A stretch of DNA of 40,486 nucleotides from a virus. Its lineage: Duplodnaviria > Heunggongvirae > Uroviricota > Caudoviricetes. The notes under the pieces were generated by a model. It saw nothing but the letters and a program-made list of their open reading frames with translations. It had not been told where the DNA came from and made no database searches. The stretch lies in the IMG/VR virus record IMGVR_UViG_2563366903_000009, positions 1 through 40,486 of that record; one strand, given 5' to 3'. The first letter of the stretch is position 1. Every line of letters begins with the position of its first letter. This document shows, in pieces, positions 13,713-37,962 of the stretch. The position numbers were made by a program, and so were the translations under genes.

Positions 13713-16138
13713 ATGTCCAAAAATAAACAAATGGTGGGCATCAGCCGCAGAACACTCGTTAAATCTACCGCGATAGGTTCTCTGGCGCTGGCTGCAGGCG
13801 GTTTTTCTTTGCCGTTTACCCTGCGCAGTGCAGCAGCAGCGGTACAACAGGCCAGCGAAAAAGTGGTCTGGGGTGCCTGTTCCGTCAACTGTGGTAGCCG
13901 CTGTGCACTTCGTCTGCATGTTAAAGATAATGAAGTGACCTGGGGGGAAACTGACAACACCGGCAGCGACGAGTATGGCAACCATCAGGTACGCGCCTGT
14001 TTGCGCGGTCGCTCCATCCGTCGGCGTATTAATCATCCCGATCGCCTGAATTACCCAATGAAACGCGTGGGCAAACGCGGCGAAGGCAAATTCGAACGGA
14101 TTAGCTGGGATGAAGCCCTGGATACTATCGCCAGTAGCCTGAAAAAAACCGTCAAACAATATGGCAATGAGGCTGTATATATTCAGTACTCTTCGGGGAT
14201 TGTTGGCGGCAATATGACCCGCTCTTCTCCATCAGCCTCGGCGGTCAAACGCCTGATGAACTGCTACGGCGGTTCACTAAATCAGTATGGCTCCTACAGC
14301 ACTGCGCAAATTTCCTGTGCCATGCCCTACACCTACGGCAGTAATGATGGCAACAGCACCACGGATATTGAAAACAGCAAGCTGGTCGTGATGTTTGGTA
14401 ACAACCCGGCTGAAACCCGCATGAGCGGCGGTGGCATCACTTATCTTCTTGAAAAAGCGCGCGAGAAATCGAACGCAAAAATGATTGTTATCGATCCGCG
14501 ATATACCGATACGGCTGCTGGTCGTGAAGATGAATGGCTTCCTATTCGCCCGGGCACCGATGCCGCGCTGGTTGCGGGTATTGCCTGGGTATTGATTAAC
14601 GAAAATCTCGTTGATCAACCTTTTCTCGATAAATACTGCGTCGGCTATGACGAAAAAACCTTACCCGCAGATGCACCCAAAAATGGTCACTATAAAGCCT
14701 ATATTCTTGGTGAAGGTGATGATAAAACAGCGAAAACGCCGCAGTGGGCTTCGCAAATTACAGGTATCCCGGTAGACCGTATCATCAAACTGGCGCGTGA
14801 AATTGGCACAGCAAAACCCGCTTATATCTGCCAGGGCTGGGGGCCGCAACGCCAGGCAAACGGCGAGCTGACGGCACGCGCTATTGCTATGTTGCCTATT
14901 TTGACGGGCAATGTCGGCATCAGCGGCGGAAATAGTGGTGCGCGTGAATCGACCTACACCATTACCATCGAACGCTTGCCGGTGCTGGATAATCCGGTCA
15001 AAACGTCAATCTCCTGCTTCAGCTGGACAGATGCTATCGATCATGGCCCGCAAATGACGGCAATCCGCGACGGCGTCCGGGGCAAAGATAAACTAGATGT
15101 GCCCATTAAGTTCATCTGGAACTACGCGGGAAATACCCTGGTTAATCAGCATTCTGACATCAACAAAACGCATGAAATTCTGCAGGACGAATCGAAATGC
15201 GAAATGATTGTGGTCATCGAAAACTTTATGACCTCATCGGCAAAATATACCGACATTCTGCTGCCAGACCTGATGACCGTTGAGCAGGAAGATATTATTC
15301 CTAACGACTACGCCGGTAACATGGGATATCTCATTTTCCTCCAGCCTGTCACCAGCGAAAAATTCGAACGCAAACCAATTTACTGGATCCTGAGTGAAGT
15401 CGCGAAACGTCTTGGACCTGACGTCTATCAAAAGTTCACTGAAGGTCGCACGCAGGAACATTGGTTACAACATCTGTACGCCAAAATGCTTGCCAAAGAT
15501 CCGGCATTACCGTCTTACGACGAATTAAAAAAATGGGTATCTATAAGCGTAAAGATCCCAATGGTCATTTTGTCGCCTACAAAGCATTTCGTGACGACCC
15601 CGAGGCAAATCCACTTAAAACGCCTTCCGGTAAGATTGAAATTTATTCCAGCAAGCTGGCGGAAATTGCCCGTACCTGGGAACTGGAAAAAGATGAAGTG
15701 ATAAGCCCACTGCCGGTTTATGCCTCAACCTTTGAAGGCTGGGACTCCCCTGAACGTAGTGCCTTCCCACTGCAACTGTTTGGTTTCCATTACAAATCCC
15801 GTACGCACTCGACCTACGGCAACATTGATGTCCTGAAGGCAGCCTGCCGTCAGGAAGTGTGGATCAACCCTATAGATGCACAGAAACGTGGGATTGCCAA
15901 CGGCGATATGGTGCGGGTGTTTAACCATCGTGGCGAAGTTCGGCTACCAGCCAAAGTGACACCACGCATTCTCCCTGGAGTTAGTGCTATGGGCCAGGGA
16001 GCCTGGCACGAGGCCAATATGTCTGGCGATAAAATCGACCACGGCGGCTGTGTGAATACGCTAACCACTCTGCGCCCTTCACCACTGGCGAAGGGAAACC
16101 CGCAGCACACTAATCTGGTCGAGATCGAAAAAATATAA
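13713..16138 (+). pseudogene. ynfE: DMSO-reductase-family molybdoenzyme catalytic subunit YnfE, disrupted by -1 frameshift in an A7 tract
   Basis: Track ORFs 13713-15701 and 15461-16138 together align end-to-end with the intact paralog ynfF. The frame change maps to the A run at 15527-15533 (..DELKK|MGIYKRKDPNGHFVAYKAF..). Tat-type signal and Cys cluster at the N-terminus. Confidence 0.75.
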
Positions 16139-18632: not shown

Positions 18633-18746
18633 ATGACCACACAATATGGATTTTTTATCGATTCCAGCCGCTGTACTGGCTGTAAAACCTGCGAACTGGC
18701 GTGCAAAGATTTTAAAGTTGGTTACGTATCGTTTAAAATCAATTAG
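18633..18746 (+). pseudogene. ynfG: 5' fragment of Fe-S subunit gene ynfG, truncated by prophage insertion
   Basis: MTTQYGFFIDSSRCTGCKTCELACKDFK (ferredoxin-type Cys motif), then unrelated sequence VGYVSFKIN* from about 18717. RBS AGGAG upstream of ATG at 18633. Confidence 0.7.
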
Positions 18747-22923: not shown

Positions 22924-25900
22924 TTAATCCACTCCCACTTTTTTGTTGTACTCGCGGTTAAACCGATCCACGGCAATTTTCATATCCCGCTCTACCGATT
23001 TCACCATCGCCGACTGTTGCGCCAGACTGAGAGTACTGTCGGCGTAAATGGCATCACGTTGTTTACGCAAATCCTTCAGTCTCTTCCGGGTATCCTGCAT
23101 AAGCCCGTTCATCGACAATTTTCCGTTGTTCTCGTCAATGAATGCCGTTCTTTCTGCACCGGTCAGACTCTTCAGCTCTGCGTGGTACTGCGCAACCTCC
23201 GTCATCCGGTCATACATCTTCTGCTGGTCAGCATACGGCATCACCTCACCCGAAATTTTCCCCAGGAAGGGCACCTGCTGCTCCGGTATATCAATACCGT
23301 TCAGCGATTTCACCGCCGCATCTGTGGTTTTGGAAATGAAGCGCCCTGTCCCTCCGGAGATATAGTCAATCCAGAATTTCAGCGATTCCGGTGTGATATC
23401 CACCGCGCCGGGACGATACTGGCTGCCACCTGAGAACGCATTCAGCCAGGATGCAAACGCCTTGTACGCCTCAGGCGTTGAACGTCTGCCCAGCTGGCTG
23501 TCCGGTTTCGGTGTGCCAAATGGCATGTTCTCCTGGTAAATCTGCGCCCCCATGAAGTTTTCATTCATGGCAAGGTTCGCAAACGGACGCAGAATGGTCG
23601 GCGCTGCATTTTTCAGCAATGCCCCGGACAGTGTTTCCGACGTTTCACTGCCCACAGGACTGAATGCCCCCAGGATACCACCGACAACATTACCGGCAGC
23701 ACGTGAAGCAGTCAGGTCGCCCGCTGCCACACCTTCAGCAGTATGCCCGAGCAGGAAGAAAACGTTGTACCCGTAAGGCAGAGGAATACTCCAGTACTCT
23801 CCGGCCTTGCCCCCGAACACCGATTTCATAATGACGAGGTTACGCTCTTTCACATGAGACGGCACCTTGTCATACCAGTTAACCCCGTCATCATCCTCCC
23901 CCGCAACACTGCGGTTAAGCGAGCCAAGCAGATAACCCGCTCCCACAGCTGCAAGCGCGATTTTCTGCGGTACATTGAGATTCTTCCAGCGAAGGCGCTC
24001 CGGTAACGGCCCGTCGCCATTAAGATGTCCGAGCGTTCTCACCAGGTTTGCGGTCCCCTGAATGCTGGCGTTGGCAAACATATACAGCGAGTTCATCAGC
24101 GCTCCCTGCTCACCACGACGGTTAAAGTTCACCGTCATGTTTTTGGCAAGAGACGCCGCCTGCTGGCGTGACAAACCAGCATCACGGGCGTGTTTATAGG
24201 CAGAAAGACGCAGAGCGTTTTCAACCGCCCCGTTGGCATCCTCGACAAGGTTAAGGAACGAATTCCATGCACCGATACTCTGGCCTTTCCATCCGCCCTT
24301 CGCCAGCGACACAAGGCGATCCATTTCCTTCTGCTGGCCCTCAAGGTCACCCATGTTAAACCAGCCGGTTTTACCTCCGTCCTCAACAAACTCTTTCCAC
24401 ACTTTCTGCCACTGTGCGCCTTTGCCCGTGAGGGTTTTGCCACGCAGACTGGCGTACACGGCTGACATTGCAGAACGGCTGTCTTTGACTACAGCCAGGG
24501 CGGATAAGTTATCCAGCCCTTTCAGTTTACCGTCGCTCCTTCCCTGCTCCGCCTTCAGGTTCATCACCGCCGTCTGCACGTCACGGATGAAGTTACTGAC
24601 CAGAAATTCCGGGTTATACGACGTGTTCACCGTTGCCAGGAAGCGGTTAACTTTCCCCAGCGTACGGATTACGGCGTTACTGGTTTCCGGCCCCATGTTC
24701 TTCATCGCACGCATCAGGCGCGGATCATGAAGTTTAATGTAGTAAGTTTTGCCGTCCTTTTTGGTGGTGAAGTAGCGATCCGCCATCATTGCCATCGGCA
24801 CAGGGCGCTCGACAACTTCGCGAATGGTTTCACCAGTTTCCTGGTCCTTGCGCTCTGCAATCACACGCATTGTATCCGGTCTGTCATCAGTGAATACCTG
24901 CCAGTAATCCTTGTCGGGATTATCCTGTACCAGTTTCAGGAAGGCGTTACCCACTTCATTTTTGCGATTGCGGATCAGCGATTCACTCAAATCCTGTATC
25001 GCCTGAGTGGAAGGAGACTGTGCGCGGGATGCACGCCCCATGGCCTGCTTACTTTCACGCCCGCCGATGGTGAATCCCTTGCCTGTACGTGGCTGTGACA
25101 CCACACCGTCAACATCCTGCCCTTTCAGGGGGACGTAGTAACGGTAGGCTTTCTGCCAGGCATCCACCACGCCGCTCTCTTCCAGTCCTGCCTCACGGAT
25201 AATCTCACGGCGACGGGCCAGCATATCGTCAATAATCCCTGCCAGACGGTCATACTGTGCCTGTTTGCCGCTGTTACGCACACGCTGCATGATTTCCGCC
25301 GCTTCCGCGTTGGTCATCCCCGAACCGCCGTCCGGCATTTTCGGGTTGATTTTCGCAATATGCGCGTTACGTTCCGGCGCGTGACGGGCGTAGAGGTACT
25401 CATCCAGATCGGCCTGCGCAATTTTGTAGTCCGCCAGCAATTTGGCCAGCGGCTGAACGTAGCGCTCCTTCATTACGTTCAGGTCGTTTTCCGCCTTCCC
25501 GTGGAAGAGTTCTTCTGCCATATAAGCGTTGTTACTGTCGTCCACTTTGCCGCCAGTTTTACGGATATTCTCCTGAACAGCTTTCAGCACCTGGAATTTA
25601 TCCTGCATCTGGCGCACAAAACGCGATGCAATAGTCTCTTCCGGTGTCAGACTGCTGGTACGGGAGTAATACGGCCCCTTGCGAATATCCTCAGGATGTA
25701 GTATTTTAAATCCAGAAGAGCCGTTGATGGTGTTCGCCTCGGGCAATTGGAGCCCGACTGCATGAAGCCATTCAGCGGCTTTTTCTTTATTAAGATACAG
25801 CAAAGATGTATCAAGCTGATCCTGCAAAGCACTCCTTTTGTCCTTTCCATAGGCACTGGCAATTTTGTTTATCTCTGCAAATCCATCGCCTTTCACATGG

Positions 25901-28900
25901 GTATGAATTGCAACAATGACAGGATTCCCTTTTGTATCGGTCGCCTGAATTAAAGATACCAACGCATCCGATTCAGTTTTCGAACGCATAACTGCTACCG
26001 GATCTGTCAGAAGTTGAGGCAAATCAGCCAGTGTTTCCACTGACACAAAGTGTTCTCTGATCTCTGGTCTCGTAGCCTTATGCACAACAGATGCAGGCAT
26101 AACCAGTTCAAGATCTGGTGCCCCCAATGCGCGCAAAACACGAGGCGTATCCCCAACTCTGAGCATTTCCCTTCTGGAAACCGATTGTAATCCGGCAATG
26201 CGACGCACTTCTGAAGCAAACTGCTTTGCATCATAGGCGTCAGCCTTAAACGGATCAGGTTTACCACTACGGGAGTACTGAGACGATGCGCCCGCGCCAT
26301 CCTCACGCGGCGTGTAACCTTCCCGCACACGCTGGCCTAACGTACGGATGGTCTCGCGAACAAGTCTGATATCGTTCAGTTCCGTCGGCTTCAGTAACCC
26401 CGTACGACGCAGTACCCCTTTGACCAGGGCAACAACACGCTCCCATGCCGCCACGAATTTATTCGGCTGTTTCTCCGCCATATGTGCCAGAAATTCACCC
26501 GCCTGCACTTCCGGTGATTCCTTACCATAGGACGCATCAACCTTACGCCAGGCTTCACGGATGGTGGCGTTATCACTGTCGCGGGTTTTCAGCACGGTTT
26601 TGATGATCGTCTGATATTCCGCTGGCGTGACAACATGCTCCATGGCATGGTGGATAATCTCGTGACGCAACTTCTCGCGTACGGTCCGCCCGTCAGGGAT
26701 GTTATCCGCCACCAGGACAATTTCACGTTTATCCGGACGATAGAACGCGTGCACCTTGCCGTAACCGTCGAATGATTCACCCGCCAGTGCTTCAGCCTCT
26801 TTCTGTGACTTCACCACGCGGACCTTCAGGTCACTGTCCTTAATGCCACTAATCACGCCACGGGCAACCGCTTCAACCTGCGGGACCGGGCTGCCTTTGG
26901 CTTCCGCACTGCGGTTAACATCCGAAATGAGATTGCCTTCAGGTGTGCGGGTCACGCCCTTACGGGAATAAAACGCAACGCCCTTGTCCGTCTCACGGGT
27001 TTTCAGGGTGCGGAACAGGTGATCGAATGCCTCACGAATGCCACCATCCAGTTCCGCATTCGTCGGATAAGCGTAGGTGTTATCTGTGTTGTGCTCAGGT
27101 GCCTTACGGATATTGACCAGATAATCATTCTCCACGCCAGCCGTACGCGCCTTATCCTGAACATAACGCTCAAAGGCACGTGCCGCCATTTCAACATCCG
27201 TTGACCAGTACGGTTTTGAGCGCACCTCATCGAGAAGAGCTGAACGACGCGGCATGTCACTGTTTTTAATGGCCTCAATGACACCTTTAAACGCGTCGTA
27301 AACCTCCTGACGCACCGGATATTCAGCGTCAACAAACCTGCCGTCTTTAAATACGCGCTTAACACGCCTGGCTTCCGTCATAAAGTCACCACCTGACGTA
27401 ATCTTCCCGTCAGTGGAAACATCATAACGACCAAAATAATTATCCAGTGAATGGAACCATTCGTGCGCCAGCGCACCCGGTCCGTTACCTTTTGTCAGGT
27501 TGATTGCCACCTCACCCGGCTCATAGTGTGCTGCCGCCTTACCCTTACCACGGGCACCAAATGCCAGGCCAAGACGACCGTTCAGGGAAAGCGCTTTTGT
27601 CGGTACATTCAGTACTTCAGCAAGGTCATGCAGCGAGTCATAAGCCCGGTTCAAATCAGCCTGACGACGCGGACCTTCCACGTAGTTACCAAACTGCACA
27701 CCACGAAAACCAAACGCATCGCTGAACTGCTTCGGTGAGACATCACCCTTGCGGCGTTCTGGCCCGGTACGATCGCGGTTGGTGGCGTTACGCTGCTCCT
27801 CACGGGAAATCTCACGCATCTCCTTCACATGACGAACAAGCTCATCACGATGTGAATCAATGTACTTACGCGCATCACTGGCTGACTTAAAGCCACCTCT
27901 CACCCGCATTTTGTTTTTGCCGTAAGCAATAAAAATATCGCCACTGCGGGTATTCCGGTATACGTCAAAGCTGATTTTGTCATCCGGTGACGGTGCTGTT
28001 TTTTCATCACCTTTCGCCTGTGATTTTTCCTCCTGCTCTGCAAACCAGGATTTTGCCTTTGTCAGTAATTCATCCCTGCTTTCCGAGAAAAAGAGATTGC
28101 TCCCCTTATTGTCCTTATTGCGCAGTGAATAAAGTTTCCGTGGCGGATCGTAACGTTTCCCTCCTGCCGCCTGATACACACCGGATACCACCCGATAAGC
28201 AGAAGCCTTGTCTATCTGCGAGGGTGGCAGCGTGCGTAACAGTTGCCATGTGTCCGCGTAACGGGCGGGCATTCTGCCTTCCATCCACTCAGCAAGCCGT
28301 CCGGCAGTCACTTTTCCTTCCAGCATTCCCGCCACACTTGTGCGGATGCTCTTTACACTCTCCACCCACTTCACTGCATTGAGTTTCGTCTTCGCCGGAA
28401 TATCGCTACGATACAGCGCTATCATTGCCAGGGTATCAGCATCGGCACCTTCGTTCGCCAGTTTTGCGTAGTCCGGTTTCGGGAACAGTTTGCTCAGCGG
28501 TTGCGTGACATAATCCCTGTCTTCCAGCGTTTTACCCAGTGTTTCGGCAAGCTGTGCATAACGGTGTTTTGCCGCGCCCTTAATCTCCTCGCCAAAGTCT
28601 TCAATTTTTGCACCACGCGCCTGCTGGTGAGTGCTCGGTTTATCTACCGGCACCGGCACCGGCACCTCAGTATCCGGAACATCGGTTATGGTCTGGCGAT
28701 TATCCCCGGTCTGTCTGCGCGCTTCTGCCTGCTGTGCCAGTTCCGGAAGGGAGTCACGAACCATACGAGGGAGTGATTCAGGATGTGGCATATCAACCCC
28801 ACGCTGTTCAGGTGCAGGAAGTCCTTCACGCACTGGTGCTGTGGCGTTCTGCTCATCCGGTGACGGCAGACCACGACGAACCGGTTCGCTCTCCAGTATT

Positions 28901-31299
28901 TCCCCCTGGCGACCAGCGGCATTTTCCGGTGCCTGCGCACGTCCTTTCTGGAAACTCTGGCCCTTCACCTCACCGGTTGTGGTAAAACGACCACCACGTC
29001 CGGCCTGATTTTCATCCGGCGTACGCGCCACTTCTCCTGGTAACGGATATCCCTGTCCGGGATGAATATCGCCGGGAGCGGGAAGGCGTGGACGCTCAGT
29101 TAACTCCTGTGCTGTCGGACCGGCATCACCTTCAGCCATCTGTGAACGTACAAGCTCCTCTGCCGTCGGCGCGTTGCCACGGGCAAGGCGGGCCTGCACT
29201 TCTGTATCATCCCCCGTGAAACCACGGAATCGCGGGTCACGCATGAACGCGGGCTGCTCCATCGGTTCAGCATCAGCAATACGCTCTCCGTCAGCCAGGG
29301 TGTTAATGGTCTCCGTTGCCACATCTTCAGAGAACGCAGGATTATCCATTTCAACGGCATACTGATTCTCGCCTTTCTTCACTACGGACGGTTTCAGGCC
29401 GGTGGCGCTGGCATTGCGGAAAACATCGCTCCCCAGAGCACTTTTTTCATCCGTGAAATAACGGTTGTCCGGACGCACCTTTTCAATGCGTTCTGCTGGT
29501 CTGGACGCACCACTCCCGTTAATTTCAATACGAACTTCATCCGGATCGCGGAACCGCACCGTCGGGTAAATACTCCCGTCGCCATCATCCGCATTTTCCG
29601 GCTGTGGCTGTGCCTCCGGTCTGGCCTCCTGCTGAGGGCGAAGCACATCACGGATAGCCCGTAACTGCTGCTCTTCAGTATCAGTACGCCCTTCCTTCAG
29701 GCTGAGTTTTCGGTATTCCTCAAGCAGTTCAGGGCGCGGCTTCGCCTTCAGCTCATCCATCACCGCCTGTCGCTTCGCCTGTTCATCCAGTTCATTTAAC
29801 AGCTGGCTGGCGGCTTCCCGGCGATGAACGGCAGACGTGTCTCCCTCAGGTGCCATATCCGCATCAGCATACTGTTCCAGAAGTTGCTCGCGATTCATGC
29901 CCTGCATGGATTCGCGATGCTGTGCCACCGGATCAGCCGGTTCGGGTTGCGGGGCTGCTTCACCCTGCTGTACGACTTCAGCCTCACGCATGGCGGTTTC
30001 TTCTGCGGCCTGACGTTTTCCACGATATCCGGCAACCGCACCGAACGGTGCGCCCATCGCTGCACCAAGAGCGGCTCCTTCGATCGTTGCGTCAGCTACC
30101 CCCTCCCATGGTGATACATCCATTCCGGCAGTCTCACGCAACGTCATATTTTCCTGGTAACGCGAATAGCCGCCCTGCGCCGCATTAATCGTCCCCTGTT
30201 CCGTGGCATTTCTGACAATGCCGCTTTTAACGGTCTTCGCCGTGCCCCGCATCGCCAGATTAAACAACTGAGCATCGCCCAGTTTTGCCGCCATGGCATT
30301 CACAGCCAGCAATTCAGGATCGGTTGCCAGCTGCGCGCGCACCTCATCGGCAACACGCTCTTTTGCCAGATCCATTTTCTGGCGATCAGTAAGCTGTGCG
30401 TGCTGCGGATCTGCATCAATTGACAAAAACGTCTGCTGAAATTTCGGGGACTTCGCCAGCTCAGAGTAATCCGCGTTAAGAACAGAGTCTGCTGCTGCCA
30501 TTGCACTCTGCCCCTGTGCGCTGGCTGAGGAATGGGTGATCAGGCCTGCCTGGAATAAATCCGGCATTTTTTTATCGACAGCTTCTGCTGCCAGTGCGGT
30601 AGCTCTTTCCGGCTGCATCCCTGCCGCAATGTATTTTTTCTCCAGCCCGGCGGTCAGCACTTTTCGCAGAGTGACTTCACCCAGCTTTTTAGTCACACCG
30701 CCTGCAACCAGATCAGGTACAAGCGCACCAATCAGGTTTACACCCTTCGTCAGCAAGACCGCAGAATCATCATAGCCTTCACTCATTGGCGTGTTCAGCG
30801 CACGAACAGCACCCGGCGACATCTGATCTGTCAGCCATTCATCCGAGGCTTTGGCACCATCACTGACTGCCTTGCCTGTGGCCTTCAGACCTTTACCGAC
30901 AGTATCAGTCACCGCGTTTTTCCCTGTTCCATCGGGAATGTTTTTAATCGCATCTCCAACAGAAGGTGGTGCGCCCAGTTCCTTTTGCGTGGAGGAAGGC
31001 GGCATGTAAACATCCGTCATGAAAGACGACAACCCGGCAAGCGTTTTTACAGGATTATTTACAAGTGCATCACCGAGTCCACGGGCCATTTCCCCTGTTC
31101 CCCGGACGGACTGGGCGAAACCTTTACCCATTGTTGGCAATACATCGCCCAGGCTGAACGACGTGCTGTGATCAACAGCGTTCTCCGGGTTGTTGAAAAA
31201 ATCCTGCCAGTAATTTTCTCCCGGCTGCTTAATGTTCAGACTGCTGCGGTTCTGGTTACCCAATTGCGCTTCAGGGCGCTGCTCATCTGAAAAAGCCAT
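22924..31299 (-). CDS. Giant 2,791-aa protein with two HExxH zincin-like motifs; candidate virion-packaged polyvalent protein
   Basis: Single uninterrupted ORF with RBS GGAG before the ATG; HEWFH at aa 1279-1283 (27451-27465) and HEIIH at aa 1546-1550 (26650-26664); acidic/Pro-rich low-complexity region at about aa 430-850; last gene of the minus-strand block. All plus-strand ORFs inside it are antisense artefacts. Confidence 0.8.
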   Translation of the reverse strand: MAFSDEQRPEAQLGNQNRSSLNIKQPGENYWQDFFNNPENAVDHSTSFSLGDVLPTMGKGFAQSVRGTGEMARGLGDALVNNPVKTLAGLSSFMTDVYMPPSSTQKELGAPPSVGDAIKNIPDGTGKNAVTDTVGKGLKATGKAVSDGAKASDEWLTDQMSPGAVRALNTPMSEGYDDSAVLLTKGVNLIGALVPDLVAGGVTKKLGEVTLRKVLTAGLEKKYIAAGMQPERATALAAEAVDKKMPDLFQAGLITHSSASAQGQSAMAAADSVLNADYSELAKSPKFQQTFLSIDADPQHAQLTDRQKMDLAKERVADEVRAQLATDPELLAVNAMAAKLGDAQLFNLAMRGTAKTVKSGIVRNATEQGTINAAQGGYSRYQENMTLRETAGMDVSPWEGVADATIEGAALGAAMGAPFGAVAGYRGKRQAAEETAMREAEVVQQGEAAPQPEPADPVAQHRESMQGMNREQLLEQYADADMAPEGDTSAVHRREAASQLLNELDEQAKRQAVMDELKAKPRPELLEEYRKLSLKEGRTDTEEQQLRAIRDVLRPQQEARPEAQPQPENADDGDGSIYPTVRFRDPDEVRIEINGSGASRPAERIEKVRPDNRYFTDEKSALGSDVFRNASATGLKPSVVKKGENQYAVEMDNPAFSEDVATETINTLADGERIADAEPMEQPAFMRDPRFRGFTGDDTEVQARLARGNAPTAEELVRSQMAEGDAGPTAQELTERPRLPAPGDIHPGQGYPLPGEVARTPDENQAGRGGRFTTTGEVKGQSFQKGRAQAPENAAGRQGEILESEPVRRGLPSPDEQNATAPVREGLPAPEQRGVDMPHPESLPRMVRDSLPELAQQAEARRQTGDNRQTITDVPDTEVPVPVPVDKPSTHQQARGAKIEDFGEEIKGAAKHRYAQLAETLGKTLEDRDYVTQPLSKLFPKPDYAKLANEGADADTLAMIALYRSDIPAKTKLNAVKWVESVKSIRTSVAGMLEGKVTAGRLAEWMEGRMPARYADTWQLLRTLPPSQIDKASAYRVVSGVYQAAGGKRYDPPRKLYSLRNKDNKGSNLFFSESRDELLTKAKSWFAEQEEKSQAKGDEKTAPSPDDKISFDVYRNTRSGDIFIAYGKNKMRVRGGFKSASDARKYIDSHRDELVRHVKEMREISREEQRNATNRDRTGPERRKGDVSPKQFSDAFGFRGVQFGNYVEGPRRQADLNRAYDSLHDLAEVLNVPTKALSLNGRLGLAFGARGKGKAAAHYEPGEVAINLTKGNGPGALAHEWFHSLDNYFGRYDVSTDGKITSGGDFMTEARRVKRVFKDGRFVDAEYPVRQEVYDAFKGVIEAIKNSDMPRRSALLDEVRSKPYWSTDVEMAARAFERYVQDKARTAGVENDYLVNIRKAPEHNTDNTYAYPTNAELDGGIREAFDHLFRTLKTRETDKGVAFYSRKGVTRTPEGNLISDVNRSAEAKGSPVPQVEAVARGVISGIKDSDLKVRVVKSQKEAEALAGESFDGYGKVHAFYRPDKREIVLVADNIPDGRTVREKLRHEIIHHAMEHVVTPAEYQTIIKTVLKTRDSDNATIREAWRKVDASYGKESPEVQAGEFLAHMAEKQPNKFVAAWERVVALVKGVLRRTGLLKPTELNDIRLVRETIRTLGQRVREGYTPREDGAGASSQYSRSGKPDPFKADAYDAKQFASEVRRIAGLQSVSRREMLRVGDTPRVLRALGAPDLELVMPASVVHKATRPEIREHFVSVETLADLPQLLTDPVAVMRSKTESDALVSLIQATDTKGNPVIVAIHTHVKGDGFAEINKIASAYGKDKRSALQDQLDTSLLYLNKEKAAEWLHAVGLQLPEANTINGSSGFKILHPEDIRKGPYYSRTSSLTPEETIASRFVRQMQDKFQVLKAVQENIRKTGGKVDDSNNAYMAEELFHGKAENDLNVMKERYVQPLAKLLADYKIAQADLDEYLYARHAPERNAHIAKINPKMPDGGSGMTNAEAAEIMQRVRNSGKQAQYDRLAGIIDDMLARRREIIREAGLEESGVVDAWQKAYRYYVPLKGQDVDGVVSQPRTGKGFTIGGRESKQAMGRASRAQSPSTQAIQDLSESLIRNRKNEVGNAFLKLVQDNPDKDYWQVFTDDRPDTMRVIAERKDQETGETIREVVERPVPMAMMADRYFTTKKDGKTYYIKLHDPRLMRAMKNMGPETSNAVIRTLGKVNRFLATVNTSYNPEFLVSNFIRDVQTAVMNLKAEQGRSDGKLKGLDNLSALAVVKDSRSAMSAVYASLRGKTLTGKGAQWQKVWKEFVEDGGKTGWFNMGDLEGQQKEMDRLVSLAKGGWKGQSIGAWNSFLNLVEDANGAVENALRLSAYKHARDAGLSRQQAASLAKNMTVNFNRRGEQGALMNSLYMFANASIQGTANLVRTLGHLNGDGPLPERLRWKNLNVPQKIALAAVGAGYLLGSLNRSVAGEDDDGVNWYDKVPSHVKERNLVIMKSVFGGKAGEYWSIPLPYGYNVFFLLGHTAEGVAAGDLTASRAAGNVVGGILGAFSPVGSETSETLSGALLKNAAPTILRPFANLAMNENFMGAQIYQENMPFGTPKPDSQLGRRSTPEAYKAFASWLNAFSGGSQYRPGAVDITPESLKFWIDYISGGTGRFISKTTDAAVKSLNGIDIPEQQVPFLGKISGEVMPYADQQKMYDRMTEVAQYHAELKSLTGAERTAFIDENNGKLSMNGLMQDTRKRLKDLRKQRDAIYADSTLSLAQQSAMVKSVERDMKIAVDRFNREYNKKVGVD

Positions 31300-31311
31300 A
31301 CAGACTCCAGT

Positions 31312-31338
31312 AAAAAAAGCCCGACACGATGGTCGGGC
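31312..31338 (-). terminator. Intrinsic terminator between the 420-aa gene and the giant gene
   Basis: Minus-strand GCCCGAC catcgt GTCGGGC followed by TTTTTTT (plus-strand A-run 31312-31318), only about 15 nt before the giant ORF RBS. Confidence 0.7.
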
Positions 31339-31383: not shown

Positions 31384-32646
31384 TTACTTCATCCAGCCTT
31401 TGATCTTCTCGGCAGATGCGGAAGCGCTATAATCCAGCGCCTTTTCATGCTCTGCCTTTTTATCCCTGAGGTGATTCTGGTAATAAATTTCCACCTCCTT
31501 TTCACGACCAGGTTCCAGCAAAGCAGGCATATTGGCGGCAGTCGCTTTTACAAACTCCTGTTTAACCGGATCGCCCGCCGCCCACGTCTGCCACTTCTGT
31601 AAAAGCTGTTGGGTTTTCTGTTGCTGAATTTTCTGTTGATGCGGTTGTGAACCAGTCGCAGCATAATATTCATCCACCGCAGCCTGTGCATTACCGCCAT
31701 TCTTGATCGCGTCCGCCGCTACGTTGCTGGCCCCCTTCTGAAGCTCTTTCAGAGAAAGTCCCTGCTGCTTCGGCATAAAATAACCATAATTTTTCGATAT
31801 CTCTGCAAATTTGCTGCGATCCCTGACCTGAGCGATAGCCTTATCAACGGGTATCGCCAGCACGGTTTGATCATCAGGGTGCGCACTGCCGTATTCTGTT
31901 ACAGGTTTATGCGCGGTGGAGCCATCGCTGTATGTGAGATCAAGGCCAATAAGTACGTACCCTTCCTGCTGCGCCGGTACGATACTGCCAATCCTGGCCT
32001 CTTTTATCGTTTTTTCCCCGGTTGAATCAGGCATGCCAATACGCTGTTGTAGTTCCGGGGCAAACACGCCGGAAAGCACATCGAGATTTTCCGGGGTATT
32101 CAGCGAAGCAATCGCCCTGTCCGGCTTATCATCAAAGATTTTCTGCAGGTTGTTCACGGCCTGACCCGCTTTCGCAGCATAGCCTACCGTTGACATCATC
32201 TTAAGCGGATTGGCGTCCGATAATTTACCGAACAGATGAGAAGCCGCATCATGGTCACCCGCATCAATCGCTTTTCCCAGCGCCGCCATCACAGGCTGAT
32301 CGCGCGCCAGCATATCGTTATACTCAAGCCGTCGCTGGTTGTATTTCTGCAACTGGAGTCGTTGCTGTTCCATCCCCAGCGACGCATTCCGGTAATTCTG
32401 GTTGGCGTTAAACTCCCTTTCCTGCAGTGTGTAATTGCGGTCATCAACTTTGGCTCTGTAATCAAAGTTCCGCTGATCAACGTCTTTATTATGTTCAAAC
32501 TGAGACTGCGCAAATTCAAAATCGCGCTCGTTATTTTTCTGTTGCTGAGCAAGCTGTGCTTCTCGCAAACCAAGCTCCTTACGACGGGTCATTGCCTGGT
32601 CAACAGTGCTGAATCCGGCAAGTAACCCCTGTGCAAATCCGCTCAT
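31384..32646 (-). CDS. Hypothetical 420-aa protein, Gln/Asn-rich with coiled-coil-like segments (possible virion internal protein)
   Basis: Complete ORF in the same operon orientation; no motif recognised. Confidence 0.55.
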   Translation of the reverse strand: MSGFAQGLLAGFSTVDQAMTRRKELGLREAQLAQQQKNNERDFEFAQSQFEHNKDVDQRNFDYRAKVDDRNYTLQEREFNANQNYRNASLGMEQQRLQLQKYNQRRLEYNDMLARDQPVMAALGKAIDAGDHDAASHLFGKLSDANPLKMMSTVGYAAKAGQAVNNLQKIFDDKPDRAIASLNTPENLDVLSGVFAPELQQRIGMPDSTGEKTIKEARIGSIVPAQQEGYVLIGLDLTYSDGSTAHKPVTEYGSAHPDDQTVLAIPVDKAIAQVRDRSKFAEISKNYGYFMPKQQGLSLKELQKGASNVAADAIKNGGNAQAAVDEYYAATGSQPHQQKIQQQKTQQLLQKWQTWAAGDPVKQEFVKATAANMPALLEPGREKEVEIYYQNHLRDKKAEHEKALDYSASASAEKIKGWMK

Positions 32647-32656
32647 TCACCACTCC

Positions 32657-32908
32657 TTAAAACAAAGAACCAGCAATGCCGCCAATTACTGCACCAGCAA
32701 CAGCGCCAACAGGACCACCAACGGATGCGCCAATAGCCGCCCCCGTACCAATGCCCGTACCGATATTCTGCTTGTTCTGCGCTTTCTGCTGCGCCGCCAT
32801 CTGTTTGTTCGCAGCCTCAATTTCTTCACGTCGTCGGTCTGCGTCACTTATTCCCTGTAATGCCTCACGCCGTGACTGATTCGCAATATCCAGTAAACCG
32901 TATCCCAT
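32657..32908 (-). CDS. Small glycine-zipper membrane protein (83 aa)
   Basis: C-terminal GTGIGTGAAIGASVGGPVGAVAGAVIGGIAGSLF; polar N-terminal half. Confidence 0.55.
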   Translation of the reverse strand: MGYGLLDIANQSRREALQGISDADRRREEIEAANKQMAAQQKAQNKQNIGTGIGTGAAIGASVGGPVGAVAGAVIGGIAGSLF

Positions 32909-32917
32909 ATTTCCTCC

Positions 32918-33370
32918 TTACGCTGACACCAGTTGTCCGCCAACACTCAGTTGCTGTCTTGCAGGTGCAGAAGCCCCCGTCAGTATGTTCATCTGACGAT
33001 CCTGCTCTGCTTCACGGATACCATTTTTCGCGCCAGCAATTGCCAGGGCATTACGTAACCCCAGCGTATTACTGTTGGGATTATCAGGTCGGTTAACGCC
33101 ATATCGTGCCATCTGGTTATCCTGCGCCATCTGCGCTGTACGGAGACTGGAAGTGGCAAGGCCGCCCACCCGGGCAAGCTGTGCATTCATCAGGCTGTTG
33201 TTCTCGCCAAGGTCAGCCAGCCTTGCTACACGGGGTAAATATCTGGTGCGCCAGTCGTCGTATTGCTGGCGGGTCAGCGCTGCGGATGTCTGCCAGTCCC
33301 CCTGAGGGCGGGCTGCTCCGGTATAACCGTATCTCGCAAGTGTTTCGTATTTACCGTACTCCATAATCAC
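32918..33370 (-). CDS. Hypothetical 150-aa protein
   Basis: ATGA-coupled to the upstream 218-aa ORF (33367-33370). Confidence 0.5.
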   Translation of the reverse strand: MIMEYGKYETLARYGYTGAARPQGDWQTSAALTRQQYDDWRTRYLPRVARLADLGENNSLMNAQLARVGGLATSSLRTAQMAQDNQMARYGVNRPDNPNSNTLGLRNALAIAGAKNGIREAEQDRQMNILTGASAPARQQLSVGGQLVSA

Positions 33371-34023
33371 AGTCTCCAGTTCTGAGCCTGATGCTGAATG
33401 GCATTAGCGCCGGTGCCAGGTGTTTTAGCACCGCCACTTCCTCCGCTACCACCAGCCTTATGCATCGCATATGCACCTACCGCACCCAAACCAGCGCCAA
33501 CAAGAGAGGCTCGCCCCTGCTGTTTCGTAAACGCCGCCTGTGCATCCGATTTGGCTTTTGCCAGACTGCTGTCAGCCAGGGAGTTAAAACTCTGTAACGC
33601 ATCTGCCTTCTGACCGGAACCGAGAGCCGCAACATCCTGTAGCCCGGCAATATATTTATCTGCCTGCGATACCTGCCCCCGTGTGGTCGTGTCAATCTGC
33701 CCGATCACCTGGTCGCTTTGATTTGCATCCATTACTGCATTAAAACGACCACTGGATGGGTCAACGCCGGACTGAGCAAGATTACCCGCCAGCTCCCTTC
33801 GCGCTTCACCAAACTGTTTCTGATACCCAAGATTTGTTGTGCCTGCGATATTTTCGTACTGCTGCTCACTGTTAAGGTCATCGACCTTTTTCATGAAGTT
33901 ATCTTCTGCCGGACGGAGAATATTTTTGTAATCCTGCCACCCTTTCCAGGCCACCTCTTCCTGTGCTATTTGCGCTGCTGTTGGTTTTACTTTGGTATCA
34001 CCACCACCTTTACTTCCGCCCAT
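33367..34023 (-). CDS. Hypothetical 218-aa protein with Gly-rich termini
   Basis: MGGSKGGGDTKVK... and ...GGSGGSGGAKTPGTGANA; RBS-like GGAGC upstream. Confidence 0.5.
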   Translation of the reverse strand: MGGSKGGGDTKVKPTAAQIAQEEVAWKGWQDYKNILRPAEDNFMKKVDDLNSEQQYENIAGTTNLGYQKQFGEARRELAGNLAQSGVDPSSGRFNAVMDANQSDQVIGQIDTTTRGQVSQADKYIAGLQDVAALGSGQKADALQSFNSLADSSLAKAKSDAQAAFTKQQGRASLVGAGLGAVGAYAMHKAGGSGGSGGAKTPGTGANAIQHQAQNWRL

Positions 34024-34116
34024 AATGGCTCCTCAGATAACAAAAAACCCTGCCGGAGCAGGGTCAGAATGTGAATTGCAATGTGGGTTTACGCTCGATG
34101 ATGAATACAGTGGCAG

Positions 34117-34898: not shown

Positions 34899-34925
34899 AC
34901 AAAAAACCCGCCATCACAGCGGGTT
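34899..34925 (-). terminator. Intrinsic terminator after the Lom-family gene
   Basis: Minus-strand AACCCGC tgtgatg GCGGGTT followed by TTTTGTTG, 22 bp after the stop codon. Confidence 0.65.
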
Positions 34926-36684: not shown

Positions 36685-37962
36685 TCAGCTTAACCTGCCT
36701 ATGCGAACAGCCAGGCGTCCGTTCTGGTCATAAACTTCAATTTTATCATTGCGGATCACCAGCCCAACATTCTGATTAGAGTAACGAATTGTCAGTTGCC
36801 CCTGCGACGTAACACTAAAAAGGCCACCAATATTCAGGTTACCCTGAGAATCAACCTGAAAGTTCCCGTTCTGAATAACAGCACTCCGGATAACAGGCGA
36901 CGTGATACTTACCCCGGCTTTTACTTCATCTGCCACAACCTTCCGCGACACCAGTGTTTCAATCACCGCGTCATAAATCATCGCTTTGGGAATAACAACT
37001 TTTCCACCAGAGACCGCAAACGGATAGGCGGTGTTATCCGGATTATTCGGGTCAAAGACAAACAGCTGTGACGCAGAAATTGCAACCTGGCTTACCGGCT
37101 TCCCTTCACCATCTTTTCCTGCAACAATTCCGATCCCCGCAGTAATTCCCTCAACACCGGTCTTTTTTGACCACATGGCCAGGAAAGCTTCACCGCCTTC
37201 TTTATCCACCTTAGTGATGCGCTCATTTACCTTATTAAGCTCTTCACTGGTTGACTTATTCATCCCCGTAACACGGGTATCAATACCACCGATAGTTTTC
37301 AGTGTTTCTTCCCTGAGATTACCCACAACTTCCGTCGTCTCGATTGCCGCGTCCTTTACTGCCTGCCCCTGAGCATTCTTTATTTCCTTACGCAGCTCTT
37401 CCACCACCGGTGACTTTGCAGCCTCCTCCTTGATCTGGTCAATAATGGCCTGAACGCTTATCTGGGTTTGTGCGGGAGTGCCTTTTACCGCGTTCCATGG
37501 CCCTTTCACTCCCGCTGCATTAACAAAGCGTATCCAGTAGAATCCCGACCAGCCCGGATCAACCGGATCAACCGGATCACCGTAAACCTGCCCCGGCGTC
37601 GTGGCAACCAGCACCGCATCCGAAAGGTCATCCTCCGTACCCCGCCAGATTTCAGTCAGTGAATGACCGCGATAATTCGGCATATCCCATTCAAGCAGTA
37701 CCGAGCCAAATCCCCCTGTAGCCTTAAAATTCTGCGGCTTCGATGGGAAATCAACGACCATCAGGGAACTGTCAATCTCGATCCCCGGATTCAGGGCGTA
37801 TGCGGCACCTCCTGAAGCCCGGCGACGGGCAAGCTTCAGACCGACCAGCTCTTCACGGGTTACAAAAGCATGACGACCATCGCCACGTTGTCCTGTCCCT
37901 ATCTCCATATTTTCCACAACCGCAGATAAATCCTTTCCTGCGCGCCACGGTTTTTTTGTCAT
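36685..37962 (-). CDS. Tail fiber / host-specificity protein, lambda J C-terminal-like
   Basis: Segment ...AMWSKKTGVEGITAGIGIVAGKDGEGKPVSQVAISASQLFVFDPNNPDNTAYPFAVSGG... parallels the lambda J region ...[52 protein letters not shown]... (recalled); fibronectin-III-like stretch upstream. Confidence 0.6.
   Translation of the reverse strand: MTKKPWRAGKDLSAVVENMEIGTGQRGDGRHAFVTREELVGLKLARRRASGGAAYALNPGIEIDSSLMVVDFPSKPQNFKATGGFGSVLLEWDMPNYRGHSLTEIWRGTEDDLSDAVLVATTPGQVYGDPVDPVDPGWSGFYWIRFVNAAGVKGPWNAVKGTPAQTQISVQAIIDQIKEEAAKSPVVEELRKEIKNAQGQAVKDAAIETTEVVGNLREETLKTIGGIDTRVTGMNKSTSEELNKVNERITKVDKEGGEAFLAMWSKKTGVEGITAGIGIVAGKDGEGKPVSQVAISASQLFVFDPNNPDNTAYPFAVSGGKVVIPKAMIYDAVIETLVSRKVVADEVKAGVSITSPVIRSAVIQNGNFQVDSQGNLNIGGLFSVTSQGQLTIRYSNQNVGLVIRNDKIEVYDQNGRLAVRIGRLS

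Follow-up and report, generated by a model that had tools for sequence, protein, structure and literature searches.

A giant cysteine-free polyvalent protein with two zincin-like domains at the end of the late block of a 933W/phi24B-type prophage

The DNA analyzed here (the window, 40,486 nt, IMG/VR record IMGVR_UViG_2563366903_000009) is a stretch of Escherichia coli chromosome carrying a prophage, in which a minus-strand open reading frame (ORF) with an ATG start (22924..31299; all features of this gene given below are on the same strand) encodes a protein of 2,791 residues (307 kDa, pI 7.2) without a single cysteine. From N- to C-terminus the protein comprises a conserved N-terminal domain (N-domain), an acidic linker, LPD5 with a HExxHxxD metallopeptidase (including LPD1), a metallopeptidase of a HExxxH family, a MuF-C domain, and a helical module containing LPD38 (C-module). 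With a probability of roughly 70%, we read it as a giant virion-internal polyvalent protein, i.e. a delivery chassis with swappable cargo that is ejected with the DNA. The gene is the ortholog of L0134 of phage 933W and of gp47 (vb_24B_48) of phage phi24B, and its product is already known and annotated from a familiar group of phages, and the class to which it belongs dates from a 2017 description; what is added here is the placement of both peptidase domains, a correction of the MuF-C label, the extent of the C-module, and two sequence signatures.

The random chance of 2,791 codons without a stop is about 1e-58. An earlier note on this DNA, made from the sequence alone, had described a single 8.4-kb ORF reaching to 31338; the single ORF stands, but the end at 31338 took in an upstream hairpin, the real ORF end being 31299. 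The two HExxH motifs reported in that note are where it placed them, HEWFH at 27451-27465 (residues 1279–1283) and HEIIH at 26650-26664 (residues 1546–1550), compared with 0.037 such motifs expected from the protein's own composition. The acidic, proline-rich linker that it described is also recovered, at residues 441–905 (28585..29979), with 19% Asp plus Glu, 9.7% Pro, a net charge of −31, and just 19% hydrophobic residues. Pfam matches, all well above their cut-offs, are to LPD5 (residues 1046–1195), LPD1 (1356–1435), MuF_C (1744–1842), and LPD38 (2474–2679), and neither HExxH motif falls within MuF_C. The presence of these four domains in one polypeptide bears out the note's proposal of a polyvalent protein: as in the proteins so defined by Iyer et al. 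(2017), several unrelated domains, including LPDs, are coded together among late/virion genes. PHROGs matches are to families of unknown function and to one 'DarB-like' family confined to the C-terminal part, and a PADLOC search of the giant protein returned no defense or anti-defense family. Comparison of the protein, and of profiles of two of its modules, with the sequences of solved structures gave nothing, or low-complexity noise alone.

Size alone might suggest a tail fiber or tape measure protein, or a non-enzymatic protein with HExxH motifs arising by chance, but we regard the likelihood of either as negligible. Domain searches (Pfam, PHROGs, NCBIfam), whose outcome the earlier note had named as decisive on this point, gave no tail fiber or tape measure family, and the protein is absent from the tail model of phi24B; the phage is of the podovirus type, and the phi24B map accounts for the whole tail. 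Both motifs are conserved in deep families, and the domain and conservation results described below refute a chance origin.

Metallopeptidase 1 (residues 1177–1435; 26995..27771), which contains HEWFH, is of the CLCA_X type, or phage-type polyvalent MPTase. The NCBIfam CLCA_X model matches residues 1177–1432 over 243/250 positions (E = 9.5e-44), with a score of 150 bits against the 260-bit cut-off that NCBIfam sets for the stand-alone family; in contrast with that family, the domain in the window is embedded and always preceded by LPD5 (27715..28164), as it also is in stand-alone LPD5-peptidase-LPD1 homologs of 480–650 residues from many bacteria. CLCA_X, a zincin family common in phages and plasmids, forms a sister group of the CLCA metalloprotease domain (Lenart et al., 2013, PMC3650047), and its polyvalent-protein clade is marked by a His ending strand 2 and an Asp three residues past HExxH (Iyer et al., 2017, PMC5512222). 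Among 20 sequences of 39–65% identity, H1258, E1260, H1279, E1280, W1281, H1283, D1286, E1370, R1374, and E1377 are invariant, and the HExxHxxD pattern of the HExxH+D clade is present. E1370, R1374, and E1377 sit on a downstream helix and lie within Pfam LPD1, which for this reason is best regarded as the C-terminal, Glu-bearing part of metallopeptidase 1. A profile of the region found no match among Protein Data Bank sequences. In Gemmobacter caeni, a stand-alone LPD5-zincin-LPD1 gene (P0120) adjoins H-NS, PcfJ, and a SNF2-like helicase of >1,700 residues, in an apparent integrative conjugative element that has a Tn7-like TniQ/TniB/transposase set as its neighbor.

Metallopeptidase 2, or zincin 2 (approximately residues 1465–1680; 26260..26907), belongs to a family for which there is no Pfam model, only faint Peptidase_M76 hints being seen at its motif. 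This motif, HEIIHH (residues 1546–1551; 26647..26664), is readable as either HExxH or HExxxH. Residues 1436–1743 were found only in E. coli and Salmonella by a word-indexed search; an exhaustive HMMER search recovered 402 relatives at E < 0.001, nearly all within proteins of 1,400–6,000 residues and a few of them free-standing (210–270 residues). An alignment of 124 members gives RHE-x-x-x-H-[HY]-G-L as the motif of the family, i.e. HExxxH, from which one residue has been lost in the 933W/Salmonella lineage to give HEIIHH, and E1602, 56 residues downstream of the motif, is conserved in 100% of the sequences. On these features the domain appears to match the 'HEXXXH' metallopeptidase set of Iyer et al. 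(PMC5512222). The AlphaFold2 model of zincin 2 with MuF-C is poor (predicted local distance difference test score, pLDDT, 58.5) because only close E. coli and Salmonella sequences served as input; the order of elements in it (helix, strand, helix, strand, strand, motif-helix) weakly suggests a zincin core. In 72% of 117 giant relatives (1,216–6,026 residues) the HE motif lies 950–1,350 residues from the C-terminus, and across the same set its distance from the N-terminus varies about seven-fold. As judged from sequence, both HExxH motifs appear to lie in conserved zinc-protease-like domains, the first in a CLCA_X-type metallopeptidase with invariant catalytic residues and the second in another conserved family, which agrees with the zincin-like domains that had been suspected; their peptidase activity is predicted.

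The MuF-C domain (residues 1744–1842; 25774..26070) matches PF18819 with E = 9.7e-24 over 99/103 positions and is, by its source paper's definition, the RNase-like PBECR domain, a predicted RNase of the BECR fold and not a peptidase. In a 2026 preprint on phi24B (doi 10.64898/2026.04.10.717836) MuF-C is called a metallopeptidase that degrades peptidoglycan; since the domain's source paper defines an RNase-like PBECR and the HExxH domains lie elsewhere, we regard this as a mislabel. Foldseek searches with the poor model gave faint, non-significant matches to HigB2 and CdiA-CT toxins. Two clearly different MuF-C alleles occur among otherwise near-identical E. coli and Salmonella copies, and that of the window is the rarer, common to P0156, P0157, and P0178, including some Salmonella copies; such variation would be typical of toxin-like cargo.

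The C-module (about 910 residues, 1881–2791; 22927..25659) is mostly helical and contains Pfam LPD38 (PF18857, E = 3e-48; residues 2474–2679, 23263..23880). The last 941 residues are conserved over their full length at 33–59% identity behind differing upstream parts (methyltransferase, ART-PolyVal, LPD3, InPase, or MuF_C), with 45 homologs aligning throughout. The module also occurs alone, in proteins of 900–1,000 residues; one of these (P0187) lies in a small degraded prophage whose surroundings are uninformative. By tblastn, C-modules are present in 357 phage records, including those of Shiga toxin (Stx) phages, about 100 Vibrio phages (41% identity), and Ralstonia GP4-like (26%) and Burkholderia Bcep22-like (27%) phages, with partial matches in Bacillus podophages. 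AlphaFold2, given 46 sequences, predicts a single unit, built mostly of helices, that includes a small beta subdomain (pLDDT 82.3, predicted template modeling score 0.79), and 69 proteins in BFVD match this model at E ≤ 0.001, with template modeling (TM) scores of 0.6–0.86 over about 950 columns down to 14–16% identity. The model and alignments together point to a true extent of about 910–940 residues, without a solved counterpart.

Two relatives bear on the role of this module. PTXU04_00025 of Escherichia phage PTXU04 shares the fold (TM 0.63 over 962 columns) and has LPD38 as its sole annotated domain, but is only 15% identical and 2,198 residues long; its knockdown blocks efficient infection (doi 10.1101/2023.09.18.558157), making it the sole relative with a phenotype. 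By analogy, the giant protein would not be merely accessory: its C-module is a conserved core, and PTXU04 does not infect efficiently without the protein that carries its counterpart. JC1 gp69 (4,515 residues, with lytic transglycosylase, methylase, helicase, LPD3, and a C-terminal LPD38) is virion-associated by mass spectrometry (MS), and JC1 and 933W have similar portal and capsid genes (PMC9144972). The C-module might serve solely as a head-incorporation signal or scaffold without a role in DNA delivery, like the part of the N4 virion RNA polymerase (vRNAP) that is required for encapsidation (PMC5512222). Such a role would suit its position, since in a profile search of giant relatives the detected module ends at the protein C-terminus in 50/50 cases, and it would suit the lack, in the module, of membrane helices and of any match to known ejection proteins. 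Some 900 residues with a fold kept at 14–16% identity are, however, much for a targeting tag, and the module is a complete stand-alone protein in some genomes; on balance we consider this reading rather unlikely, though a serious contender. A DarB-like antirestriction role, in which the protein would modify the incoming DNA or shield it, is very improbable: phrog_10089 ('DarB-like antirestriction') does match residues 2349–2679, and the GP4 and Bcep22 relatives are annotated accordingly, but the match is confined to the shared C-module. The methyltransferase and helicase domains of a P1 DarB-type enzyme were searched for with Pfam and NCBIfam and not found, and that candidate was rejected.

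The remainder of the protein can be described in terms of what is kept and what is exchanged. The N-domain (residues 154–407; 30079..30840) corresponds to phrog_37568, is about 31% identical to giant proteins of Vibrio phages, and recurs, like zincin 2 and the C-module, in giant proteins of other podophages, while the middle is swapped among relatives for methyltransferase, ART, InPase, PRTase, LPD3, or lytic transglycosylase. In the 3,066-residue protein of Vibrio phage D56, for example, the N-domain (31% identity), zincin 2 with a canonical HExxxH (33%), and the C-module (40% over 957 residues) are all shared, and a gene upstream is homologous to the 420-residue gene upstream in the window, but the middle holds a methyltransferase. 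Salmonella copies carry a phosphoribosyltransferase domain directly after LPD1; in alleles P0012, P0019, and P0050 (Salmonella, Edwardsiella) this domain, of about 270 residues, stands exactly after the FYSR that ends LPD1 (residues 1446/1447 of the window protein), an arrangement that looks like clean cassette insertion at a junction motif. We read zincin 2 plus the C-module, together with the N-domain, as the conserved unit, with cargo between the N-domain and zincin 2 and, in some relatives, also between zincin 2 and the C-module, as with MuF-C here.

Evidence for packaging comes from the phi24B ortholog. By megablast, the giant gene is found at 90–97% identity in 186 phage records, nearly all of Stx-converting phages. 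PGAP gives its product the name 'LPD38 (or LPD5) domain-containing protein'. The phi24B gp47/933W L0134/VT2-Sakai homolog matches the window protein from end to end at 88% identity, stands in the same slot after a gp48-like gene, and shares its Pfam domains and both motifs; it differs in the N-terminal 460 residues, which are just about 81% identical, and in the MuF-C allele, which is the rarer type here. In the phi24B preprint (doi 10.64898/2026.04.10.717836) gp47 is among the most abundant proteins of purified virions, with a spectral-count total in the supplement second only to that of the major capsid protein and with peptides spanning residues 78 to 2673 and every module. This supports, through an 88%-identical ortholog, the virion packaging that had been predicted for the window protein. 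From length-normalized spectral counts, with 12 portal copies as reference, we estimate roughly 23 copies of gp47 per virion; the same normalization gives 6 for the hexameric nozzle. Counts of gp47, which the supplement gives per slice per protein and not per peptide, are highest in slices from the top of the gel, above the one that holds the portal, indicating that most of the protein in virions is of very large size. It does not appear in the cryo-electron microscopy map or model of phi24B, and the preprint's authors propose that it is an ejection protein (doi 10.64898/2026.04.10.717836).

As the preprint sees it, the protein would be a purely structural ejection protein that forms a trans-periplasmic conduit and has a metallopeptidase that digests peptidoglycan. 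A virion protein unseen in the map suits such a role, as do the essential PTXU04 relative and the lytic transglycosylase carried by JC1 gp69-like relatives. Nonetheless, the 'metallopeptidase' on which the proposal draws is the RNase-like PBECR, whereas the real zincins belong to polyvalent clades also found in conjugative elements and stand-alone proteins, not to cell-wall peptidase families; the window protein has no lytic transglycosylase detectable by Pfam, and a swapped middle third is unlike a conduit subunit. We find this distinctly unlikely, and continue to favor an ejected chassis that carries exchangeable cargo.

Two compositional signatures accompany this architecture. The first is the near-absence of cysteine, with 0 in the giant protein and 34/310,414 residues in 120 giant relatives, 100 of which have none. 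In the window, cysteine-free proteins are also coded by the four genes immediately upstream (31384-34023) and by the needle gene (36685-37962), whereas the nozzle, Lom, gp54, and chromosomal gene products contain 0.8–3% cysteine. Such a composition fits unfolded passage through the tail channel and an oxidizing periplasm. The second is a junction motif. YSR occurs four times in the protein against 0.35 expected, and three of the occurrences are at module junctions, each in a low-pLDDT linker of the models: after metallopeptidase 1 (residues 1444–1446; 26962..26970), after metallopeptidase 2 (1675–1677; 26269..26277), and at the start of the C-module (1878–1880; 25660..25668). [FY]S closes the metallopeptidase 1 unit in distant relatives too, and at the position after zincin 2 F is found in 72% and S in 61%. 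Among giant relatives [FY]S[RK] is enriched 1.9-fold (270 observed vs 144 ± 13 expected), whereas control patterns are not, and it stands at fixed distances on both sides of zincin 2. Neither signature was found in the literature that was read, and the paper that defines the class mentions neither (PMC5512222).

The anti-defense or effector role that the earlier note suggested for the zincin-like domains is hypothetical, and the literature leans towards self-processing of such polyproteins by their zincins. Eukaryotic CLCA1 is a self-cleaving zincin. Literature searches on L0134 and on experimental processing of polyvalent proteins found nothing. We put forward, as a doubtful and tentative extension, that the [FY]S[RK] sites at residues 1444, 1675, and 1878 are zincin cleavage sites, at which the ejected chain would be split in the new host into a fragment from the N-terminus, a unit with the zincins, the RNase-like toxin domain in free form, and the C-module, and that lack of cysteine is a general signature of proteins that leave through the tail and cross the periplasm unfolded. 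Alternatively, the zincins may be effectors that cut host proteins, of defense or housekeeping, and not the polyprotein. This possibility is listed by Iyer et al. (PMC5512222), and in mobile elements LPD5-zincin-LPD1 units occur by themselves, outside any polyprotein that they could process; yet there is no known target and no match to a PADLOC or anti-defense family, and the fixed distance from zincin 2 to the C-module and the flanking motifs point to a function bound up with how the protein itself is built. We judge this alternative, too, to be unlikely.

Several observations weigh against the interpretation of the giant protein as a zincin-bearing chassis whose cargo is released by cutting. 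The zincin fold of the second domain is putative: its model has a pLDDT of 58, Foldseek returned nothing below E = 0.2, and in an hhalign comparison of the zincin 2 and zincin 1 families the HE helix alone aligns, with a probability of 5.9%, which is not evidence of a specific relationship. The phi24B gel slices argue that gp47 is mostly uncut in the virion, and any processing must come later. The [FY]S[RK] enrichment is not an independent test because the sequences are related by descent. We found no experiment on the protein or any ortholog in which proteolysis or ejection was demonstrated or the host was affected; a preprint on PhiXacm4-11 held nothing relevant to the giant protein.

The sequence directly upstream of the gene suggests how it may be expressed. 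GCCCGAC-CATCGT-GTCGGGC followed by seven T (31338..31312) forms a 7-bp, G+C-rich hairpin (six G-C pairs) resembling an intrinsic terminator, directly upstream of the ribosome-binding site. After the T run comes ACTGGAGTCTGT-ATG, with 12 nt between the terminator and the start codon and a GGAG Shine-Dalgarno sequence (31305..31308) 6 nt before the ATG. The intergenic gap to the upstream gene is 84 nt, and no promoter-like site was found in it; the terminator with scant room for a promoter, to which the earlier note had drawn attention, is real. Despite sequence differences the hairpin is retained in PhiR5_2 and phi24B by covarying pairs (pair 1, at the base, G-C / A-U / G-U; pair 6, A-U / G-C / G-C), which implies that it is under selection. 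In the public phi24B record (HM208303 49148-; locus 1349-1390), gp47 starts 13 codons upstream of the ATG that is preceded by the Shine-Dalgarno sequence; because of this placement the terminator hairpin itself encodes the annotated N-terminus (MPGHCAGFFYGVC), and the record's note of a 'putative leader peptide' depends on those 13 extra codons. Two further strong terminator-like hairpins are present on the minus strand of the late block at 34905-34925 and 34046-34065, one right after lom, in keeping with moron-type units past whose ends only an antiterminated polymerase would transcribe.

Combining these data, we propose the following sequence of events. As the conserved terminator suggests, the giant gene would be transcribed solely within the Q-antiterminated late transcript (Q and pR' fall outside the window), the terminator stopping unmodified polymerase that arrives, for example, from lom or other moron-like upstream genes and leaving the gene silent otherwise. 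The C-module, and perhaps the N-domain, would serve incorporation into the head and exit from it, with about 20 copies packaged together with the small cysteine-free proteins. At infection the needle would leave and the packaged proteins would pass out through the tail, either ahead of the DNA or together with it. Once inside the cell, the zincins would most likely cut the polyprotein at exposed [FY]S[RK] linkers and free the RNase-like domain and the LPD5-peptidase unit, the middle being the cargo that would act in the newly infected cell.

The surroundings of the gene are those of a 933W/phi24B-type (Traversvirus-like) prophage inserted in ynfG. On the minus strand upstream, the four cysteine-free genes (31384..34023; 420, 83, 150, and 218 residues) are orthologs of phi24B gp48 (83% identity), an 83-residue Gly-zipper protein (100%), gp50 (98%), and gp51 (95%), and are followed further upstream by genes for a 133-residue protein, Lom, gp54, the needle gp56, and the nozzle gp57. 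Each of the four phi24B counterparts was detected in virions by MS; the supplement lists gp48, gp50, and gp51 as structural candidates, and the preprint text appears to dismiss gp48 as a contaminating 'transcription regulation factor' (doi 10.64898/2026.04.10.717836). In Vibrio phage D56, too, the giant gene has a gp48-like gene as its partner. The four small proteins are probably co-packaged partners of the giant protein and may be ejected together with it. Downstream, the giant gene converges on plus-strand prophage genes (18.7–22.5 kb) for AntA and Bro-type antirepressors, DUF4752, Ead/Ea22, and DUF551. The order of orthologs from nozzle to gp48 upstream and the plus-strand orientation of all genes downstream therefore make the giant gene the last in the morphogenesis block, which confirms that it closes the minus-strand late block.

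The interval 13.7–18.7 kb holds the chromosomal genes ynfE and ynfF together with the initial 80-odd bases of ynfG. Insertion at the 5' end of ynfG (~18633-18720) has left only these bases of the 4Fe-4S subunit gene, adjoining ynfF. Compared with strain NCTC9112, ynfE (13713-16138) has a 1-nt deletion at ~15525 beside a run of seven A, giving ORFs of 662 and 225 residues; the split gene is either a pseudogene or the product of a homopolymer sequencing error.

Taken together, the earlier note's overall reading was essentially right: the ORF is real, polyvalent, packaged as judged by its ortholog, and has zincin-like domains. In Shiga-toxin phages of enterohemorrhagic E. coli, about one seventh of the genome is given to this gene, and correct domain placement provides exact sites for mutation (E1280, E1547, and the RNase-like domain). 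If the protein is a chassis with cargo, its middle third should be deletable or replaceable, and it could be used as a vehicle for protein delivery into E. coli. About 20 copies of 307 kDa would, as estimated from spectral counts, amount to ~6–7 MDa of internal protein, which we speculate may explain a 60-kb genome in a T=9 head. The cysteine signature, if it holds, could flag ejected proteins in any phage genome.

Comparison with known systems places the protein as follows. T7 gp14-16 and P22 gp7/16/20 are likewise packaged in the head, lie outside the symmetric map, and are released at infection; in contrast, the window protein is one 307-kDa chain with four small cysteine-free partners, and neither sequence or fold similarity to those ejection proteins nor membrane-spanning segments or a lytic transglycosylase were found in it. 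N4 vRNAP is also giant, packaged in the head of a T=9 podovirus, ejected, and equipped with a polyvalent-type metallopeptidase (PMC5512222), but its cargo is an RNA polymerase, and we detected no relation to the C-module in either sequence or fold. Also comparable are the 'DarB-like' proteins Bcep22 gp75, JC1 gp69, and that of Ralstonia GP4, which share the C-module (26–27% identity over 84–98%) and are coded by the last morphogenesis gene, but which are 4,500–4,600 residues long and carry lytic transglycosylase, methylase, helicase, and LPD3 as cargo. The window protein also corresponds to the polyvalent proteins of Iyer et al. (2017, PMC5512222), which are giant, late-coded hubs of metallopeptidases with LPDs and PBECR; of the two zincin variants described for them (HExxH + D and HExxxH) it has the first and probably the second. 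The difference is that LPD38, there a domain of 189 residues, is part of a single fold of ~910–940 residues in the window protein.

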